Positions 4,678 through 59,115 of a stretch of 64,000 nucleotides of DNA are shown here, piece after piece. This DNA is from an uncultured Bdellovibrionales bacterium (GTDB lineage: Bacteria; Patescibacteriota; Minisyncoccia; Moranbacterales; UBA1568). The stretch covers positions 13,840 through 77,839 of the forward strand of contig CAZATJ010000002.1 in NCBI GenBank assembly GCA_964488025.1, in the 5' to 3' direction. The notes under the pieces were generated by a model. The model searched no databases. It was not told the origin of the DNA and worked only from the letters and a program-made list of their open reading frames with translations. The position numbers and the translations under genes were made by a program. Position 1 is the stretch's first letter, and each line of letters opens with the position of its first letter.

Positions 4678-4730
4678 TTTGCCAGTTTTGGCTCTCTGGA
4701 CTAAAATAAAGATACATAATCAATTTCAGT

Positions 4731-5675
4731 ATGAATGAAAATCAGCCGTATTTGTCGGTCGTTGTTCCGTTGTATAACGAAGAAGGAAACGTGAGGGAGC
4801 TCCATCGGAAAATTCGCGAGGCGGTCGAGAAGATTGGACGGCCGTTTGAAATTATTTTCGTGGATGATGGATCCAAAGACGGGACACTCGAGGCGGCCAA
4901 GGGACTGACTCCGCTCAAGCTCATTGCTTTCCGTAAGAACTTTGGTCAGACCGCCGCTTTTGATGCCGGTTTCAAGGCGGCAACGGGGGAAATCATTATT
5001 ACACTTGACGGTGATTTGCAGAACGACCCGGCTGATATCCCGCTTTTGCTTGAGAAAATGGCCGAAGGGTTTGATGTGGTGTCCGGCTGGCGCCATAAGC
5101 GTCAGGACCCGTGGAGTAAAAAGATTCCGTCGCGTATCGCCAACCTGCTCCGCAAGTTTCTCATTCACGATGATATCCATGACTCCGGATGCAGTCTGAA
5201 GGCCTATAAGCGCGAGTGTTTCAAGGACGTGGACTTGTTTGGTGAGATGCATCGCTTCATCCCGGCTATTTTGCAGCTTGATGGCTACCGGGTAGGTGAG
5301 GTGAAAGTGTCGCATCATCCACGCATCCACGGAGTGACCAAATATAATTGGAAGCGTGGCTTCAAAGGACTGGTGGATATGATTTCCATCTGGTTCTGGC
5401 GCAAGTATTCCAATCGACCGCTGCATCTTTTTGGGGCGAGCGGGGTCATCTTGTCCTTTGTCGGTACGGTTATTTTGGTCTGGATGATGATTGAAAAATT
5501 CTACTTCGGCGCCTCTATTTCCGAGCGCCTGTGGCCTCTGGTGGGTATCTTTTTTGTCCTGGTGGGTGTGCAGCTTTTTATTTCCGGTCTCTTGGCCGAT
5601 ATCATGGTACGCAACTACTACCAGGGTCGGGAGCGTATGAATTACAACATAAAACAAATAACAGAAAACAAATAA
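4731..5675 (+). CDS. GT2 family polyprenyl-phosphate glycosyltransferase (GtrB/DPM1/ArnC-like)
   Basis: Motifs: LSVVVPLYNEEGN, VDDGSKDGT, TLDGDLQNDP (DXD), two C-terminal TM helices. The last 10 codons (NYNIKQITENK) and the stop are encoded by the downstream CAAATAACA repeat. Confidence 0.85.
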   Translation: MNENQPYLSVVVPLYNEEGNVRELHRKIREAVEKIGRPFEIIFVDDGSKDGTLEAAKGLTPLKLIAFRKNFGQTAAFDAGFKAATGEIIITLDGDLQNDPADIPLLLEKMAEGFDVVSGWRHKRQDPWSKKIPSRIANLLRKFLIHDDIHDSGCSLKAYKRECFKDVDLFGEMHRFIPAILQLDGYRVGEVKVSHHPRIHGVTKYNWKRGFKGLVDMISIWFWRKYSNRPLHLFGASGVILSFVGTVILVWMMIEKFYFGASISERLWPLVGIFFVLVGVQLFISGLLADIMVRNYYQGRERMNYNIKQITENK

Positions 5676-5724
5676 CAATCAACGAAGAACGGGGAGCAAA
5701 TAACAGACAGCAAATAGCAATCAA
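5654..5724. repeat. four tandem degenerate 14-15-mers CAAATAACAnnnnnn / CAAATAGCAATCAAC immediately 5' of the four-helix-bundle gene
   Basis: Direct reading: caaataacagaaaa, caaataacaatcaac, caaataacagacag, caaatagcaatcaac. Confidence 0.7.
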
Positions 5725-5729
5725 CAGAA

Positions 5730-6089
5730 ATGTCACAAGATGTCTTGAAGGAAAAGATGGACGAGCTTGCTAAGGGCGTATATACCGTCACCAAGGTTTT
5801 TCCTAAGGAGGAAATATATGGGTTAACCTCACAAATACAGCGAGCATCACTGTCGGTTATCCTAAACTATATTGAAGGCTTTGCACGAACGGGGGATAAA
5901 GAATTTAAAAACTTCCTACAGATTTCCTATGGTTCATTAAAGGAAACCCAATATCTTCTTTTCTTTTGTACTCGTGAAGAATATATTAAAAAGGGAGACT
6001 ATGAGAAACTTATGAAGTTGTCAGACGAAATTGGGGCTATGCTTTGGAAAAGAATCAAAACCGTAAAAGAAAAAATCGCTAATAGTTAG
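5730..6089 (+). CDS. four-helix-bundle protein (23S rRNA intervening-sequence protein family, TIGR02436-like)
   Basis: Strong family match: YGLTSQIQRASLSVILNYIEGFAR and FLQISYGSLKETQYLL, the hallmark block of IVS-encoded four-helix-bundle proteins. 119 aa. Confidence 0.85.
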   Translation: MSQDVLKEKMDELAKGVYTVTKVFPKEEIYGLTSQIQRASLSVILNYIEGFARTGDKEFKNFLQISYGSLKETQYLLFFCTREEYIKKGDYEKLMKLSDEIGAMLWKRIKTVKEKIANS

Positions 6090-6112
6090 TTGCTGGTTGT
6101 TTATTGTTAATT

Positions 6113-6121
6113 GTTGATTGT
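6113..6121. repeat. GTTGATTGT, inverted copy of ACAATCAAC (5675-5683 and 5718-5725) flanking the four-helix-bundle gene
   Basis: Seen directly. The reverse complement of 6090-6124 (cataagacaatcaacaattaacaataaacaaccagcaa) mirrors the 5' flank aacaaataacaatcaacgaag. Confidence 0.6.
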
Positions 6122-6124
6122 CTT

Positions 6125-7435
6125 ATGAAAGTCACTTTTCTGGGGACCGGATACGTTGGTCTGGTGTCGGGTGCTTGTATGGCGGAAATCGGCCATGAGG
6201 TCATTTGTGCCGATATTGATAAGAAGAAGATTGCTCTCCTCAAAAAAGGTGGCATTCCGATTTATGAAATCGGTTTGGAAGAAATCGTGGAGCGTAATGT
6301 CAAAGAAGGACGCCTGACCTTTACCACAGATTTGAAAAAGGCTATCGAAGAGTCGGAAGTGGTTTTTATGGCGGTTGGAACCCCGGAAGACAAGGTGACT
6401 GGTCAGGCTGACCTGCAGTACGTGTTTGCGGCGGCGGAGACGTTTGGCAAACACCTGAACGGCTTTAAAGTTTTCGTTGACAAATCAACCGTGCCGGTCG
6501 GAACCGCTGAGAAGGTGGAGGAGATTATTAAGAAGGCATCAAAGGGGAAGCATCCGTTCGAAGTAGTGTCGAATCCGGAATTTTTGCGCGAAGGAGCGGC
6601 GGTGAAAGATTTTTTGAATCCGGATCGCGTGGTGGTGGGAGCGAAATCGGCCAAGGCTAAGAAGCTCATGGAGCAGGTTTATCGCCCGCTTGCTCGTGCC
6701 GGACGACCGATCATGTTTACCGACGTGCGTAGTGCCGAAATCATCAAGTACGCGGCCAACGCGTTTCTTGCCATGAAGATTACCTTTATGAACGAGGTGG
6801 CAAATTTCTGCGATGTCGCTGGAGGCAACGTCAAGGAAGTGGCCAAGGGCCTTGGTTACGACAACCGTATCGGAGGACGGTTCCTGTATGCCGGTATCGG
6901 GTACGGCGGATCGTGTTTCCCTAAGGACGTGAAGGCTTTCATTGAAACGGGGAATGAGTACAATTCTCATTTTCACATCATTGAGACCGTGAGTGAAGTG
7001 AACGAAGCTCAGCGAATCAAGCCATTCGTGAAATTGAAAGAAACGTTCGGCGGGAAATTAAAGAATAAAACCGTTGCCGTGTGGGGACTGGCTTTCAAGC
7101 CGCGTACCGACGACGTGCGGGAGGCACCGGGAATCGAGAACAGCAAGCTTTTTCTCGAAGAGGGTTGCAAGGTACGTGTCTTTGATCCGGTGGCGATGGA
7201 AAATGCCAAGAAAGTGCTTGCACATAAGAACCTGACCTATGCCAAGAAGGCACTGGATACCCTGAAGGGCGCTGATGCTCTGGTGATTTGCACGGAGTGG
7301 GATGAATTTCGAGTGGCGGATTATAAAGATATGAAGAAACTCATGAAGGGTGATTGTATCTATGATGGGCGTAACGTGCTTGAGCGTTCCGAGGCCGAAG
7401 CGAACGGATTTACTTATTATGGCATCGGAGTTTAA
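6125..7435 (+). CDS. ugd: UDP-glucose 6-dehydrogenase
   Basis: N-terminal Rossmann motif MKVTFLGTGYVGLVSG and catalytic GGSCFPKDV Cys motif. An in-frame upstream ATG at 6104 (MLIVDCLM) is supplied by the repeat module. The start at 6125 is favoured by homology. Confidence 0.9.
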   Translation: MKVTFLGTGYVGLVSGACMAEIGHEVICADIDKKKIALLKKGGIPIYEIGLEEIVERNVKEGRLTFTTDLKKAIEESEVVFMAVGTPEDKVTGQADLQYVFAAAETFGKHLNGFKVFVDKSTVPVGTAEKVEEIIKKASKGKHPFEVVSNPEFLREGAAVKDFLNPDRVVVGAKSAKAKKLMEQVYRPLARAGRPIMFTDVRSAEIIKYAANAFLAMKITFMNEVANFCDVAGGNVKEVAKGLGYDNRIGGRFLYAGIGYGGSCFPKDVKAFIETGNEYNSHFHIIETVSEVNEAQRIKPFVKLKETFGGKLKNKTVAVWGLAFKPRTDDVREAPGIENSKLFLEEGCKVRVFDPVAMENAKKVLAHKNLTYAKKALDTLKGADALVICTEWDEFRVADYKDMKKLMKGDCIYDGRNVLERSEAEANGFTYYGIGV

Positions 7436-7494
7436 GACAATAATCAATCACCAGTCAGCAATCAGTGGTGAGTAAATAGCAAGAGAACAAAAGA

Positions 7495-7983
7495 ATGAAA
7501 ACGGTGGTATATATTGATGGTGCAAATCTTCATCGGGGCACAGTAAATCTTGGCTGGAATTTAGACTATGCCCGTTTTCGAGTTTGGTTAGAAGATAAGT
7601 ATAAGGCGGAAGCGGTGTATCTTTTCATTGGGTTGATATCAAAAAACAAAGGTTTATATACTGCCTTGCAAGAGGCAGGATATATTTTGGTATACAAGGA
7701 AGTAACCTATGACGGAAGCGGAAAAGTGAAAGGGAATTGCGATGCTGAGTTGGTATTGAAAATGACTTCTGATTGCTATGAAAATCGTTATGATCAGGCG
7801 ATTTTGGTATCGAGTGATGGGGACTATGCCGGACTGGTGAGTTTTTTGAAAGAGAAGAGGAAATTTCGAGCACTTATTTCGCCGAGCAATAATTGCTCTT
7901 TTCTTTTGAGAAAATTGAATGTCCCCATTATCTATCTTGATACTAAAAGAGAAAAGTTAATGAAAAGAAAAAGCCCCCAATAG
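7495..7983 (+). CDS. NYN domain (LabA-like, PIN-fold) putative ribonuclease
   Basis: YIDGANL N-terminal acidic motif, CDAELVL and LVSSDGDYAGLV blocks typical of NYN/LabA domains. 162 aa. Confidence 0.65.
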   Translation: MKTVVYIDGANLHRGTVNLGWNLDYARFRVWLEDKYKAEAVYLFIGLISKNKGLYTALQEAGYILVYKEVTYDGSGKVKGNCDAELVLKMTSDCYENRYDQAILVSSDGDYAGLVSFLKEKRKFRALISPSNNCSFLLRKLNVPIIYLDTKREKLMKRKSPQ

Positions 7984-8011
7984 GTACGGATCCTACCAGG
8001 GTCTTTTTCAT
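7976..8011 (+). terminator. candidate intrinsic terminator after the NYN gene
   Basis: cccaatagg..cctaccaggg imperfect stem followed by tcttttt. Confidence 0.4.
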
Positions 8012-24412: not shown

Positions 24413-24541
24413 CGAGTCTTTCCAGCCAAATTCGCTATAGAAAACCCCATTTATCGAATGCTCAATGGCTTGTATGAGGAATTCTCGGCATGATGTTTAT
24501 CTTATTCTTATCACCTATCACTCATCTCCTATCATGACTCT

Positions 24542-31813: not shown

Positions 31814-32095
31814 TCAATTATTCTTCCCCGTCTCGGTGTCCATTGTACCATCTTTTTCCTGTTTCTCGATAATCAGCTTCGGATCGACGCATTTCCAGTC
31901 GCAGGTCTCCTTCGCGCCATCGAGCCCGTTTTTGAGGAGATCTTTGCGGCACGCCGTGAGTTGTTCCTGGCAGACCGCCTTGCGTTCATCGAAGTAGTTC
32001 AGGTTTATCGCGTAACCGAAATGGGGCAGCGCGAAATAAGCGATGACCGTCACGCCGGCAAGCCAGATGATGATTTTGAGGAGGGAAAAAATCAT
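31814..32095 (-). CDS. small membrane-anchored Cys-containing protein
   Basis: 93 aa, N-terminal TM helix and 4 Cys in the soluble part. No family. Confidence 0.3.
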   Translation of the reverse strand: MIFSLLKIIIWLAGVTVIAYFALPHFGYAINLNYFDERKAVCQEQLTACRKDLLKNGLDGAKETCDWKCVDPKLIIEKQEKDGTMDTETGKNN

Positions 32096-32169
32096 ATCAG
32101 CGAACAGTTAACGATTGACGTTTGACGAAAAACGGCCGGTAATCTATATATTGCCGACTATCGGTTTGG

Positions 32170-33456
32170 TTATCGTCCGATACCCCTGTAAATGATTCCA
32201 GATCTGAAGAAGGATTCTTTGTCGAGGCAGTTTTTTCCGTCGACGACGGCCTTAATCCCGTGTTTTTTGAGGAGTGCCGGCGTGAGAACTTCTTTGAATT
32301 CCTTGTGATCCGTAGCGATGACCAGTGCCTGGGATTTTTTGAGTATGGCCTCGAGAGACTTCATCGTGGAGAGTCTTTTGACGTGGGGATCGAATGTTTC
32401 GACTTTGCATCCGTGATCTTTGAGGTGTTCGATGATGATCAGTGCCGGCGATTCACGCAGGTCGTCGATGTTGGCTTTATACGAAAGGCCGAGTACGCCG
32501 ACGACAGTATCTTTCATAGCCATCCGTTTCTCATTGAGCGCGTCCTGAAGACGTTCTACGGTGTACGCGGGCATCGCTTCATTGGTTTCGATGGCGTGCT
32601 TCAGGAAACCATGGTTGAATCCTGATTCTTTGGCTCGCTCGATAAGGTAGTGTGGATCGACGGGAATACAGTGCCCACCGACACCGCAGGACGGATAGTG
32701 TTTCATAAAGGCGAACGGCTTGGTGCCGGCTCCATCGATGACGTCCTTCACGTCGATACCGAGCCTGTCGAACGACATCGCGATTTCATTGATGAAAGCG
32801 ATGTTGATATTACGGAATGAATTCTCGAGAATCTTGGTCGCTTCCGCCTCGCGTATCGATTTCATCGGCCGAATCTCGGCATCGATGACGGAACGATAGA
32901 ACTGGAGGGACATATCGAGACCTTTTTTCTCAAATGATCCGACGACGCGGGGGATGTTAGTGACGTTCCATTTCGGATCGCCGGGGTTGATGCGCTCCGG
33001 ACAGTGCGAGATGAAGATGTCTTTGCCGATGACGAATCCGTGCTTTTCGAATATCGGACGGACGATCTCTTCGGAAACATACGGATTGACCGTGGATTCA
33101 AGGATAATGAGCGAGCCTTTTTTGCAATTCTGCGCGACAATCGTCGAAGCGTCGATGACGGGTACGAGGTCGGGGTGGTGCAGTCGATCGACCGGTGTCG
33201 GTACGCAGATGATGTGGATATCGGCAGGTGTGATGTCTTTCGGATCGTTCGTCACCTTGAACGGATATTTCAGAAGGTTTTCCTTGAGAAAATCATCCTT
33301 AAAGATATGATCGCCTCTTTTCAGCAGAGCCACCTTTTCCTTGTCGATATCGAAACCGATGACGTCATAACCTCTCTCTTTGGCACGTACCGCGAGCGGG
33401 AGTCCGACATATCCGAGTCCGATAACTGATACTGTCTTGAAGTCGTATTTGACCAT
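32170..33456 (-). CDS. nucleotide-sugar 6-dehydrogenase (WecC/TviB-like UDP-N-acetyl-hexosamine dehydrogenase family)
   Basis: VIGLGYVGLPLAV Rossmann motif, CPERINPGD, GVGGHCIPVDP catalytic Cys block. Confidence 0.85.
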   Translation of the reverse strand: MVKYDFKTVSVIGLGYVGLPLAVRAKERGYDVIGFDIDKEKVALLKRGDHIFKDDFLKENLLKYPFKVTNDPKDITPADIHIICVPTPVDRLHHPDLVPVIDASTIVAQNCKKGSLIILESTVNPYVSEEIVRPIFEKHGFVIGKDIFISHCPERINPGDPKWNVTNIPRVVGSFEKKGLDMSLQFYRSVIDAEIRPMKSIREAEATKILENSFRNINIAFINEIAMSFDRLGIDVKDVIDGAGTKPFAFMKHYPSCGVGGHCIPVDPHYLIERAKESGFNHGFLKHAIETNEAMPAYTVERLQDALNEKRMAMKDTVVGVLGLSYKANIDDLRESPALIIIEHLKDHGCKVETFDPHVKRLSTMKSLEAILKKSQALVIATDHKEFKEVLTPALLKKHGIKAVVDGKNCLDKESFFRSGIIYRGIGR

Positions 33457-33533
33457 AGCAAAGCCTTATACTAAGTAATTAACAATTGTTTCTATTGTAG
33501 AGAAAATCGCTGTTTTTGGCAAACATCTGCTAT

Positions 33534-33646
33534 TGACTTTATCTATTTTTTATGCTATCATATGCAGTCAGTATAGATTTTACTGATATAGGTACGTAGT
33601 CCTTGAACAATTTATTTTTTGGTCTAGTGACCAGAAGGAGTAAATC
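33534..33646 (+). promoter_or_regulatory. promoter (TTGACT-16-TATCAT) plus conserved 5' leader, copy 1
   Basis: About 75 nt is near-identical to 34496-34570. The hairpin TCAGTAtagatttTACTGA starts about 7 nt after the -10 box. Confidence 0.55.
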
Positions 33647-34484: not shown

Positions 34485-34598
34485 CTTGACCATAACTCTT
34501 TTTTATGCTATCATATACAGTCAGCATAGATTTTGCTGATACGGGTACGTAGTCCTTGAACAATTTATTACCCCTTTTGAAGGGGAGAGAGGCAGAAA
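34485..34598 (+). promoter_or_regulatory. promoter (TTGACC-18-TATCAT) plus conserved 5' leader, copy 2
   Basis: Hairpin TCAGCAtagatttTGCTGA shows a compensatory U-A to C-G change versus copy 1. A second hairpin CCCCTTttgAAGGGG abuts the RBS. Confidence 0.55.
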
Positions 34599-44154: not shown

Positions 44155-45435
44155 ATGTCTCTTATGACTGAAAATCAAGTAGAAGAACAGAATCGTGGAC
44201 ACAAACTCTTCAAACGAGCTTCCCTTTTCTTTTTCATGATATTCCTTTTTTCGGGAGTGTACTGGTTCGGCTATTTGGAGGGGCAGGGGACGAGTAGCGA
44301 AACTTCATCGGAAGTCCTGTCTCCGGACGATGCCATTATCGTCAATAAGAAAGGTGGCGACAGCACGATAGATTTCTCCCTCTTTTGGAAGGTTTGGGAA
44401 ATCCTAAAAGACAAGTATGTCGATAAATCGAAGCTTGACGCGAAGGAGCTTTTTTATGGTGCCATAGATGGTATGCTGGCGGCAACTGGAGATCCCTATA
44501 CGACGTTTTTTAGCCCCAAAGAAAATAAGGAGTTTAATGAAGATATATCAGGCACGTTTGAAGGTATTGGCGCCGAAATGGGCATGAAAGACGACATCAT
44601 CACGGTCATCGCGCCGATTGAGGGAATGCCGGCAGAAAAAGCTGGAATCATGGCTGGTGACAAGATTGTAAAAATTGATGATGTCATCTCCAGTAACTAC
44701 TCTCTTGATGAGGCCGTCAAACACATACGTGGCAAAAAGGGTACTGAAGTGAAACTCACTATTTTCCGCGAAGGCGAGGAAGAGACGCGGGATATTCTTG
44801 TCACTCGGGATGTCATCCTGGTCAAAAGCGTTCGCTTCGAGATAAAGGATGATGGTATTGCCTATATCCGGGTCACTCGTTTCGGTGATGATACCGAAAC
44901 AGAATTCAAGAATGCGGTCAGGGAGACGCTTCAGAAAAAATCAAGAGGGGTAGTCATTGATCTCCGTAATAATCCAGGAGGATTTCTCGAAACTGCTGTT
45001 AATATGGCAAGCCTGATGCTTCCTGCCGGAAAGGTGGTAGTGATAGAAGAGGATGGTTCAGGGAATCGCCGAGAGCTTACGGCGCGTGGCGGCAACATTC
45101 TTGATACTCTCCCGACGGTACTTCTCATCAATCAGGGAAGTGCCAGCGCATCGGAAATTCTTGCTGGAGCACTTCGTGATAATCGCGAAGACGTCGTCTT
45201 AGTAGGGAAAAAATCATTCGGTAAGGGATCGGTTCAGGAACTTATCTCGGTGAGCAAGGAAACAGCAGTCAAGATTACCGTTGCTCGCTGGCTTACTCCT
45301 TCCGGAAAACAGATTCACAATGTCGGTATTTCTCCGGACGTCGAAGTCGGTCTCTCAAGCGATGACGTGAAGGAAAAGCGCGACCCGCAGCTTGAAAAAG
45401 CCATCGAAGAAATAAAGAAGCTTTTGGCAAAATAA
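44155..45435 (+). CDS. ctpA: C-terminal processing peptidase S41 with PDZ domain
   Basis: PDZ GMPAEKAGIMAGDKIVKIDD, S41 blocks VIDLRNNPGGFL and INQGSASASEILAG. Confidence 0.85.
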   Translation: MSLMTENQVEEQNRGHKLFKRASLFFFMIFLFSGVYWFGYLEGQGTSSETSSEVLSPDDAIIVNKKGGDSTIDFSLFWKVWEILKDKYVDKSKLDAKELFYGAIDGMLAATGDPYTTFFSPKENKEFNEDISGTFEGIGAEMGMKDDIITVIAPIEGMPAEKAGIMAGDKIVKIDDVISSNYSLDEAVKHIRGKKGTEVKLTIFREGEEETRDILVTRDVILVKSVRFEIKDDGIAYIRVTRFGDDTETEFKNAVRETLQKKSRGVVIDLRNNPGGFLETAVNMASLMLPAGKVVVIEEDGSGNRRELTARGGNILDTLPTVLLINQGSASASEILAGALRDNREDVVLVGKKSFGKGSVQELISVSKETAVKITVARWLTPSGKQIHNVGISPDVEVGLSSDDVKEKRDPQLEKAIEEIKKLLAK

Positions 45436-51489: not shown

Positions 51490-51519
51490 CGCTAATTGCT
51501 ATTTGTTGATTGTTTTATG
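51490..51519 (+). repeat. solo copy of the right-end motif of the four-helix-bundle module (CGCTAAT...TTGTTGATTGTTTTATG)
   Basis: cgctaattgctatttgttgattgttttatg matches 6085-6127 cgctaat...ttgttgattgtcttatg. It again creates an upstream in-frame ATG (MLFVDCFM) before gltX. Confidence 0.6.
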
Positions 51520-57728: not shown

Positions 57729-57957
57729 GGAAATCCCCTTTCTTGGGAGGTTGGATTTTGGACAAGTATTTTCAAGGTACGCTGTCCATGATAGCACAAA
57801 ATATACTTTTTGTCAACCCTGCTTGGCAGGGAATTCTCTGCTACAATGAAAACATGATGAGTGATGCTAGATAGAGAAACAGCATGACTTGCCTCGATTT
57901 TTCTTAGGTATTTCATATCATTTATCCTGTATCACTTATCTCTTATTATCTTCGAAT

Positions 57958-59115
57958 ATGCGCATCTCTTATTCCAGTGTCGGGACGTACCAGACATGTC
58001 CGCTCAAGTATAAATATCAGCACGTTGACCGTATTCCGGAACCAAAATCCAAGGAGGCGGTATTTGGGACGCTCATTCATGCGGTCATGAAGTATATCCA
58101 CACCCCGAGCCTTCTCTCCCCTTCTGTTGATCAAGCGCTCGACTATTTCGCTAAGGGCTGGAACAGTGAAGTGTACGAGGACGAGATGGAAGAGCGCGCC
58201 GCTTTCTCGCAGGGCGTGACCATCATCCAGAATTACCTGGCGCGCAACAAACCCAATGATTTCACTATCGTCGACCTGGAAAGTCGCTTCGCGATCGAAA
58301 TCGGTGATGAGGAGCATGGCAAGCACATCGTCTCTGGTATTATCGACCGAATTGACAAGACAGCCGATGGTTATGAGATTATTGATTACAAGACGACCCG
58401 CAAAATGCCGTCGCAGGACAAAGTCGATAATGATCTCCAGCTTTCCATTTATCTCAAGGCATTTCTCGCTCGCTATCCCAAGGAAGTTGAGCATCTCGAT
58501 AAGATCACGGTCAGTCTCTACTACCTGAAGCATGGCGTGAAACTTTCAAGCGCGCGCACCTTGGAGCAGTTGGAGCGGGTCGATCAGACCTTTCTCGACG
58601 TCATCAAATCGATTGAAGAGGCAAAATTCGAACCCATCCTCTCGCCACTGTGCGATTGGTGCGGGTATCAGAAAATTTGCCCTCTGTGGAAGCATAAATT
58701 TACCGAGACTCACCGGCTCGAAACCGAAGAGGTTAAGACTGCCATCAGCGAATATCTCGATCTGAAAGGTAAGATGAGCGAAGAAAAACAGCACTTGGGA
58801 AAATTGCAGGCACTGATTCTCGAGTATATGGAGCAGGAGGGCGTGGACCGGGTCTTTGACGAACAGGGCATCATCGGAAAGTCGCTTCGCAAGACCTACA
58901 AATACGATGAAGAAAAATTACGAGCTATCCTGGAACCGCTTGATAAGTGGGAATCGATTTTGAAAGTAGACGGCATCGCGCTTCGCACCATCCTCGCTAC
59001 TCTCCCCTCCTCCCTTCAGGAATCGGCTGAAAAAGCGAAAATGCTCGACAAAGAAAGCGTCAGCCTTTCGGTCAAGAAAAACAAAATCGAAGTGGATGAT
59101 GACTTGTCACTTTAA
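57958..59115 (+). CDS. PD-(D/E)XK nuclease superfamily protein, Cas4/RecB-like with Cys4 cluster
   Basis: N-terminal YQTCPLKY Cys, IVDLE / IDRID / EIIDYKT nuclease motifs, C-terminal CDWCGYQKICP (three Cys). Confidence 0.65.
   Translation: MRISYSSVGTYQTCPLKYKYQHVDRIPEPKSKEAVFGTLIHAVMKYIHTPSLLSPSVDQALDYFAKGWNSEVYEDEMEERAAFSQGVTIIQNYLARNKPNDFTIVDLESRFAIEIGDEEHGKHIVSGIIDRIDKTADGYEIIDYKTTRKMPSQDKVDNDLQLSIYLKAFLARYPKEVEHLDKITVSLYYLKHGVKLSSARTLEQLERVDQTFLDVIKSIEEAKFEPILSPLCDWCGYQKICPLWKHKFTETHRLETEEVKTAISEYLDLKGKMSEEKQHLGKLQALILEYMEQEGVDRVFDEQGIIGKSLRKTYKYDEEKLRAILEPLDKWESILKVDGIALRTILATLPSSLQESAEKAKMLDKESVSLSVKKNKIEVDDDLSL

Follow-up and report, generated by a model that had tools for sequence, protein, structure and literature searches.

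Why does a gene of the PF05635 family, known from intervening sequences (IVSs) of rRNA, lie between two protein-coding genes with complementary repeats on either side? The question is raised by a 64,000-nt stretch (hereafter the window; G+C = 47%) of contig CAZATJ010000002.1 from an uncultured bacterium of the Moranbacterales, in which a four-helix-bundle (FHB) gene separates a family 2 glycosyltransferase (GT2) gene from ugd (Table 1). We find that this module belongs to a widespread class of cassettes, co-oriented in the spacers of unrelated operons. PF05635 genes bracketed by complementary arrays of 7- or 8-nt units that co-vary with the protein appear to be a general and unreported pattern. 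We read the module itself as a cassette that is IVS-like but lies outside rRNA, and its protein probably recognises the repeats that flank its gene.

The initial annotation, which was made from the letters of the window alone, called the middle gene a four-helix-bundle gene of the IVS family, and profile searches agree. Residues 8-106 of FHB match PF05635 (E 7.5e-31, 106.9 bits, cut-off 33.8), and TIGR02436 matches at 107 bits (cut-off 24). The models for Avd stay below threshold, with PF22296 (bAvd) at 34.7 bits (cut-off 40) and NF033474 at 33.3 bits (cut-off 80). The Pfam scan detected only PF05635 and PF22296, and profile searches recognised no nuclease or recombinase domain in the protein. 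Its sequence relatives in the PDB are 2GSC (E 1.3e-16) and 2RLD, each deposited with five chains, and a homopentamer is stated for the PF05635 family (PMC4990558). FHB is under strong purifying selection: the proportion of nonsynonymous differences (pN) is 0.06-0.16, equal to that of GT2, and the proportion of synonymous differences (pS), at 0.71-0.89, is saturated.

Both flanks of FHB are tandem heptamer arrays, A/C-rich before the gene and G/T-rich after it, a property that the initial annotation missed, together with its generality in the family. What had been read as four tandem 15-mers upstream of the gene is a period of 14, that is, two AACAnnn heptamers, within a longer array. Tandem Repeats Finder (TRF) assigned this left arm a period of 7/14 with 5.1 copies, and a separate repeat search found a spacing of 14 (family D1); CAAATAACA recurs at 5655, 5669 and 5697, three matches where 0.38 are expected. 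For the right arm, TRF gave a period of 7 with 4.1 copies. The inverted 9-mers described earlier are real, with ACAATCAAC at 5675-5683 (+) and 6113-6121 (-), but the second left-hand 9-mer is GCAATCAAC, which matches at 8 of 9 positions; CAATCAACA at 5718-5726 is a perfect complement of 6112-6120. Across the whole window ACAATCAAC has three matches against 0.63 expected, a count reached in 4 of 100 shuffles. The minimum free energy (MFE) fold of 5640-6135 contains the long-range stem that folding of the full module had been suggested to look for: 5648-5690 pairs with 6090-6127 and closes the structure, with the ugd AUG included. The earlier picture of a stem-flanked, IVS-like module between coding genes is an apt analogy. 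These within-window statistics are modest, and the strong support comes from related loci.

The module was also said to rewrite the ends of both neighbouring genes, which is true of GT2 only. As the GT2 open reading frame (ORF) stops at 5675, its last 10 codons (5646-5675) lie inside the left array, and the protein ends ...NYNIKQITENK* in place of the ...NYNIREVREQ* of array-free orthologues. The N-terminus of ugd is unchanged. The codon at 6104, formerly taken for an extra in-frame ATG, is a TTG that merely opens an ORF extension through the right arm; ugd starts at ATG 6125, and orthologous ugd proteins all begin MKVTF or MKLSF at the aligned ATG.

To place the module in its family, we scanned metagenomes with a protein alignment, which returned 80 loci at 38-66% identity, 73 of them with complete flanks. 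A gene's own two flanks had a median of 7 reverse-complement 7-mers in common, compared to a mean of 0.98 for mismatched flanks (p = 8e-33) and 1.5 for neighbouring ORFs (p = 2.5e-18). Arrays were inverted at 44 loci, direct at 5, mixed at 9 and not detected at 15. Their period is 7 or 8 only and is equal in both arms at 23/23 loci, with a median of 4-5 units per arm, and in clear cases the co-folded arms form predicted stems of 20-35 bp. The upstream arm is A-rich and the downstream arm T-rich at 39 loci against 5 (p = 1.4e-7). Upstream arrays abut the FHB start, at a median of 14 nt before the ATG. The neighbours are unrelated housekeeping genes, including pheT, glyA, rpmA, prfA, groES, der, pth and ftsW. 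Most share the orientation of FHB (46/55 upstream, 50/56 downstream), and the gaps of about 50-60 nt between them and FHB are filled by the arrays. Arrays are present in 58% of FHB-adjacent spacers, in 23% of other spacers of the same contigs and in 0.5% of coding segments. The cassettes do not resemble insertion sequences or miniature inverted-repeat transposable elements: there is no transposase, no second copy in the window and no duplication at the allele boundaries examined, and the arms differ at every locus.

Cultured bacteria carry the same arrangement on plasmids. On pANA02 of Anabaena sp. 90, an FHB gene between cas6 and cas4 has GTGACAG / CTGTCAC arrays; a Riemerella anatipestifer plasmid has AAGGTTT / AAACCTT, a Geminocystis plasmid GGGAAAA / TTTTCCC, and a Nostoc punctiforme plasmid GAGTCAG upstream with only a partial complement downstream. 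Two plasmid loci do not fit, with a downstream array only in Nostoc PCC 7120 and none in Calothrix. In the 50 kb of pANA02 that we scanned there are three heptamer arrays, two of which flank the stand-alone FHB gene as its arms. GTGACAG-family arrays flank only that gene; a genuine avd of a diversity-generating retroelement (DGR) on the same plasmid is without inverted arms. The (CTGTCAC)4 right arm (pANA02 44157-44186; L142/L152, where L-numbers label related loci) lies inside the annotated 5′ end of cas4 and would encode TVTCHLSPVT there, which suggests either a mis-annotated start of cas4 or entry of the array into the coding region.

Repeats and proteins are inherited together. Period and unit sequence are clade-specific on the protein tree despite differing genomic contexts, and the nearest protein relative shares the period in 62/67 cases. 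Protein distance correlates with flank k-mer similarity (Mantel p <= 0.0005, with the GT2-ugd site counted as one representative), and two paralogues on one contig have separate, private repeat units. In the ±2.5 kb around 32 loci, arrays at a distance of more than 150 nt on the same contig share 6-mers with the local FHB arms (0.34, compared to 0.086 with the arms of other loci; p = 3e-9). Some of these distant arrays are ORF-less hairpins of the local unit, for example L102 1034-1093.

A comparison of filled and empty junctions in relatives had been suggested with the initial annotation. A GT2-seeded search that was blind to FHB gave 24 species genomes with an adjacent GT2-ugd pair. The FHB gene is present in three of these junctions (L030, L048 and L040) and absent in 12/14 of the closest genomes (GT2 81-89% identical) and 9/10 of the more distant ones. 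The same module also occurs in identical contigs from six samples, and nine further FHB relatives, 68-85% identical, are without exception placed between GT2 and ugd. Relatives at this junction span 63-96% identity, with ten independent ones in the range 68-96%. Empty junctions take three forms. The first is a spacer of 20-31 nt. The second is an ORF-less hairpin of 97-127 nt whose arms are heptamer arrays, with another unit in each allele class (TTAG/CTAA, AGTAT/ATAC, AAAG/CTTT); such hairpins occur in L021, L022, L027, L029, L031 and L032, the last with a short loop between two arms of the L040/L014 type. The third is L020, the closest relative of the window, which keeps only three right-arm heptamers. 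Searches of the hairpin loops for FHB remnants gave marginal matches only (L027, 8 aa, E 0.03), and we give these no weight. In two pairs, L048/L023 and L007/L027, the displayed stretches of flanking coding DNA are about 97% identical, and the two members nonetheless differ by the entire module. Their divergence runs from within the last 5-7 GT2 codons to the ugd ATG (to ugd codon 5 in L048/L023), and no target-site duplication was found at the two allele boundaries examined.

Filled and empty junctions interleave on the ugd tree, and the junction cassettes form one clade on the protein tree. Pairwise identities of FHB and GT2 track each other (85/85, 79/79, 66/70 and 63/70%). As the cassettes are one clade, FHB identity tracks GT2, and pS is saturated with pN equal to that of GT2, the cassette is old at this junction. 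A recent insertion is rejected by the conserved synteny, the co-divergence of FHB and GT2 and the saturated synonymous sites. Of the earlier description as insertion-like or mobile, a discrete module that is filled or empty among relatives is supported, but a recent arrival is not. From these alignments and trees, we conclude that a single ancient acquisition was followed by vertical descent with recurrent loss or allelic replacement. Among 11 orthologues with saturated synonymous sites, the left units remain RTYAACA and the right units TGTTRAY, in differing numbers of copies. Five lineages (the window, L007, L030, L048 and L147) have exactly the same 14 nt, TTGTTGATTGTCTT, directly in front of the ugd ATG despite this saturation. 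In several lineages the array overwrote the GT2 tail, changing ...IREVREQ* to ...IKQITxNK*.

Two loci show variants of the cassette. In L010 (6001-6054) the called 141-aa product begins in the left array, which encodes an N-terminal extension, MKKRRQRQTTNNSQRNTN..., and the conserved start is an internal ATG. One Moranbacteria relative has a second PF05635 gene after ugd (L151 3262-3360), giving two cassettes in the operon.

How might such a cassette work? Site prediction in the window placed no promoter-like or terminator-like site in the GT2-to-ugd interval, so GT2, FHB and ugd, with the NYN-domain gene that follows, are probably a single transcript. We hypothesize, at a probability of roughly 0.45, that the cassette is looped out of this transcript in the manner of an IVS and that an FHB pentamer recognises the arrays. 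The cassette entered the GT2-ugd spacer long ago in this lineage of Candidatus Moranbacteria, within the candidate phyla radiation (CPR). It would have no promoter of its own and be transcribed with the operon. Pairing of the A-rich 5′ arm with the U-rich 3′ arm would loop out the FHB cistron as in an rRNA IVS and bring the GT2 stop beside the ugd start. Because the ugd AUG is paired with GT2-tail codons in the predicted fold, translation of GT2 would open it. A pentameric, Avd-like FHB may recognise the arrays with about one unit per subunit, at 4-5 units per arm, and such putative recognition would explain why period and sequence follow the protein phylogeny. The long arm duplex is a plausible substrate for RNase III.

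Several results weigh against this account. The arms in the window are only moderately complementary: their duplex energy of -27.4 kcal/mol (z = -2.1) is matched by 27/1000 dinucleotide shuffles and equalled by 4/303 other segments of the window, and the fold of the whole module is unremarkable (z = -0.71). By the 7-mer test, 15/73 loci are without complementarity, and the arrays at 5 are direct, not inverted. Arrays are not exclusive to FHB genes, as they occupy 23% of other spacers in the same contigs. In duplex energy, only 41% of loci beat 95% of mismatched flank pairs, but A-rich/T-rich units are common to many loci and weaken this control; the k-mer statistics are more informative. Host relatedness could account for part of the association of repeat unit with protein clade. 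An RNase III gene was looked for only among the 20 window proteins scanned. Finally, mismatches in the stems have no wobble bias, with 81 of G·U type and 79 of A·C type (17 and 15 in the strict set of stems paired at 85% or more). An RNA helix under long-term selection would normally be expected to have an excess of G·U, so selection at the RNA level is not evident from these data. The mismatches fit equally well with a hairpin at the DNA level, with homogenisation of the two arms or with mere variation from unit to unit. Strand polarity and co-orientation with host operons indicate that the orientation of the cassette matters, though they do not decide between RNA and DNA.

The window contains no second FHB copy or identical module, and a scan of its 64 kb for TTRAY units did not exceed shuffled expectation. 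The search for further copies suggested earlier did uncover a solo array of four heptamers of the right-arm family before gltX (Table 1). This array includes the third ACAATCAAC match of the window, and no FHB gene or complementary arm is nearby. It could be what remains of a lost cassette, or it could have a function as a leader. A general upstream motif of this genome is rejected, as TTGTTGATTGTyTTATG is found only before ugd and gltX. As at ugd, the array before gltX gives rise to a spurious TTG extension of the ORF (MLFVDCFM).

Table 1. Features of the window, with positions counted from its first nucleotide.
Feature	Positions	Strand	Basis
Promoter-like site 5′ of GT2	4679..4707	+	TTGCCA-17-TAAAAT
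GT2 (GtrB/DPM1-like) glycosyltransferase gene	4731..5675	+	Pfam PF00535, E 3.3e-34
Left arm, ~11 in-phase heptamers AACAnnn (AACAAAT AACAGAA AACAATC), broken by CGAAGAACGGGGAG, up to FHB start codon	5646..5729	+	TRF, repeat search
FHB gene, 119 aa, PF05635/TIGR02436, Avd-like	5730..6089	+	Profile matches
Right arm, six TTGTnnn heptamers of the TGTTRAY family, complement of the left arm, up to ugd ATG	6083..6124	+	TRF, inverted pairs I1/I3/I14
ugd (UDP-glucose 6-dehydrogenase)	6125..7435	+	Pfam PF03721/PF00984/PF03720
NYN-domain gene downstream of ugd	7495-7983		
Terminator-like site after NYN	7988-8004		
Solo right-arm-family array CGCTAAT TGCTATT TGTTGAT TGTTTT, abutting gltX start codon at 51517	51490..51516	+	blastn, 17 nt at 94%

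Other repeats of this kind are scattered through the window. An ORF-less hairpin of another heptamer family (57854-57950; GATGAGT GATGCTA GATAGAG ... TATCACT TATCTCT) lies directly 5′ of a PD-(D/E)XK nuclease gene (57958-59115), and a TATCACC array of the same family (24509-24534) lies between convergent Wzy_C and RtcB genes. At 32108-32128, TTAACGA TTGACGT TTGACGA, a unit resembling the FHB arm family, sits between a second ugd paralogue (32170-33456, minus) and a 93-aa ORF (31814-32095, minus). The spacer before the NYN gene (7436-7494) is A/C-rich, with the heptamer-like units AGCAATC, AGTAAAT and AGCAAGA. The region from ugd to the GT4 gene (7436-7983) is itself variable: the NYN gene, a predicted RNase, is found only in the window and L020, an unrelated ORF of 288 aa takes its place in L007, and in L010 and L014 the place is empty. 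A direct repeat of 84 nt, 89% identical between 33533-33616 and 34486-34569, stands 5′ of a 241-aa ORF of unknown function and of the GT2 gene that follows it. Each copy has a promoter-like start (TTGAC...TATCAT) and a hairpin with paired substitutions (CAGTA..TACTG and CAGCA..TGCTG), and neither matches Rfam; the repeat may serve both genes as promoter and leader RNA. A comparison of the 64-kb window with Rfam gave no match at the gathering score, not even for tRNA, and 19 related loci matched no family either, rRNA included.

We weighed four other explanations of the bracketed genes. The main rival, which we consider unlikely, is a DNA-level system like that of repetitive extragenic palindromic (REP) sequences, their hairpin doublets (REPINs) and REP-associated tyrosine transposases (RAYTs). 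FHB would be the cognate partner of heptamer or octamer hairpin repeats; a gene with inverted copies would be the autonomous form, and ORF-less hairpins, solo arrays and possibly ORF-less rRNA IVSs would be non-autonomous copies that FHB maintains or spreads. Complementarity would then be kept by DNA processes such as recognition of hairpins or cruciforms or templated correction between arms, with which stems lacking a G·U bias agree. So do the resemblance of arrays more than 150 nt away to the local FHB arms, the ORF-less hairpins built of an FHB-arm unit (L102 1034-1093, L032), the private units of two paralogues on one contig, the gradual shift of arm family along the FHB tree across contexts, and the several hairpin alleles at the GT2-ugd junction. 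Such a role is harder to reconcile with a 119-aa helical bundle without a recognisable nuclease or recombinase domain, with the lack of target-site duplications at two allele boundaries, with a unit that is not significantly dispersed in the 64-kb window, and with a repeat family that occurs only beside its gene in the 50 kb of pANA02 scanned.

Improbable in our judgement is that FHB is a translational regulator like trp RNA-binding attenuation protein (TRAP) or HutP, whose pentamer wraps single-stranded arrays in mRNA leaders (its own and those of ugd, gltX and others). The complementarity of the arms would then be secondary, an anti-operator that competes with protein binding. Arrays do abut start codons, both before FHB and in the right arm, which reaches the next ATG, and a solo right-arm-family array abuts the gltX ATG. 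The number of units per arm, about 4-5, goes with the five chains per PDB homologue entry, the period is specific to the protein clade, and a translational role has been proposed for other heptamer repeats adjacent to start codons (PMC4679880). Against this, a regulator of this kind leaves the 44:5 excess of inverted over direct arrays and the ORF-less hairpins unexplained, and an array and its complement could not be bound with the same specificity.

Very improbable, to our mind, is that the repeats are non-functional by-products of replication slippage and quasi-palindrome template switching in A/T-rich spacers, with FHB a conserved operon gene of unrelated role. This would account for the arrays in 23% of other same-contig spacers, for mismatches that are random as to wobble and for unit numbers that vary freely among orthologues. 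It does not account for the 2.5-fold enrichment of arrays beside FHB genes, for complementarity that is specific to a gene's own flanks, for a period that matches between arms at every locus compared and follows the protein clade, for the conservation of the TGTTRAY unit and of the last 14 nt of the right arm despite saturated synonymous sites, or for the polarity bias of 39 to 5.

We reject, as scarcely credible, the idea that FHB is the Avd accessory subunit of a DGR, although CPR genomes are rich in DGRs and both Avd profiles match weakly, because these matches are below cut-off, the called neighbours in the window and at more than ten orthologous loci include no reverse transcriptase (RT) domain, and the genuine DGR avd of pANA02 has no inverted arrays.

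The closest known counterparts of the cassette are the rRNA IVSs with PF05635 ORFs of Coxiella burnetii and Leptospira (S23p), which have complementary borders, are cleaved by RNase III and have a sporadic distribution (PMC4990558). The PF05635 family is also represented among the rRNA insertions of CPR bacteria (10.1101/2024.02.27.582315). As in these IVSs, a PF05635 protein is encoded inside the element, which is probably part of a host transcript here too. Complementary sequences border it and enclose a predicted stem, and it is sporadic in close relatives, with ORF-containing and ORF-less forms at the same site. The differences are that the cassette occupies the spacer of an mRNA operon, GT2-ugd, and not a helix of 23S or 16S rRNA; that its arms are tandem 7/8-nt arrays, a feature not reported in the cited IVS papers; and that FHB is strongly purified by selection whereas the Coxiella ORF is decaying.

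With Avd of DGRs, which binds an RNA stem-loop of the DGR RNA (bioRxiv 10.1101/2023.10.23.563531), FHB shares a homologous fold, a pentameric, positively charged four-helix-bundle barrel. It differs in scoring under the Avd cut-offs and in having no RT, template repeat or variable repeat partner among the called neighbours at more than ten loci. CRISPR surveys have recorded a PF05635 gene within cas operons, but not its flanks. The cassette nature of these genes explains their recurrence in unrelated operons, including the cas operons where they were scored as "associated". We found no description of bracketing arrays of PF05635 genes in the open-access literature and bioRxiv.

PF05635 proteins, also called "23S rRNA intervening-sequence protein", "S23 ribosomal protein" or "four helix bundle protein", are abundant in Cyanobacteria, Bacteroidota, CPR and other groups, and to our knowledge no function has been assigned to them since the IVS reports of the 1990s. 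Likewise, we know of no explanation for the short tandemly repeated repetitive (STRR)/TAACTGA intergenic heptamers of those phyla. Array-bracketed genes link the two, and they offer testable hypotheses on recognition, RNA looping or processing, and spread. Direct heptamer repeats of TAACTGA precede start codons in Beggiatoaceae, Cyanobacteria and Bacteroidetes, where their function is unknown and a translational role has been proposed (PMC4679880). Here, too, tandem heptamers occupy spacers, in many cases with only 0-2 nt between the array and a start codon, and with similar units (TAACTGT/TAATTGT here, TAACTGA there), and the same phyla, Cyanobacteria and Bacteroidota, hold our PF05635 plasmid matches. 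In PMC4679880, however, there is no mention of PF05635 genes or of a gene bracketed by inverted arrays.

RAYTs are homologues of HuH/Y1 transposases, and REPs are palindromes of 20-30 nt. The cassettes resemble REPIN-RAYT systems in that a single gene lies between inverted copies of a short repeat (44/73 loci), repeat families are specific to protein lineages and recur as hairpin doublets in other spacers, and inheritance is mostly vertical with losses. Unlike RAYTs, FHB is not a HuH/Y1 (IS200/IS605-like) transposase and has no catalytic domain; the repeats are tandem heptamers, and dispersal of the cognate repeat is only partly seen (±2.5 kb of 32 loci). A broader idea, possible but doubtful, is that PF05635 proteins and 7-8 nt tandem arrays are cognate pairs, a new class of repeat-protein element in which the protein of each lineage recognises a repeat family of its own and perhaps also maintains or spreads it. 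A gene with inverted arrays would be autonomous, and ORF-less hairpins, solo arrays and possibly ORF-less rRNA IVSs would be its dependants. If true, this would give the "IVS protein" family a function and STRR/TAACTGA-type repeats an origin, and it would constitute an analogue of RAYT-REPIN built on a non-enzymatic, Avd-like pentamer.

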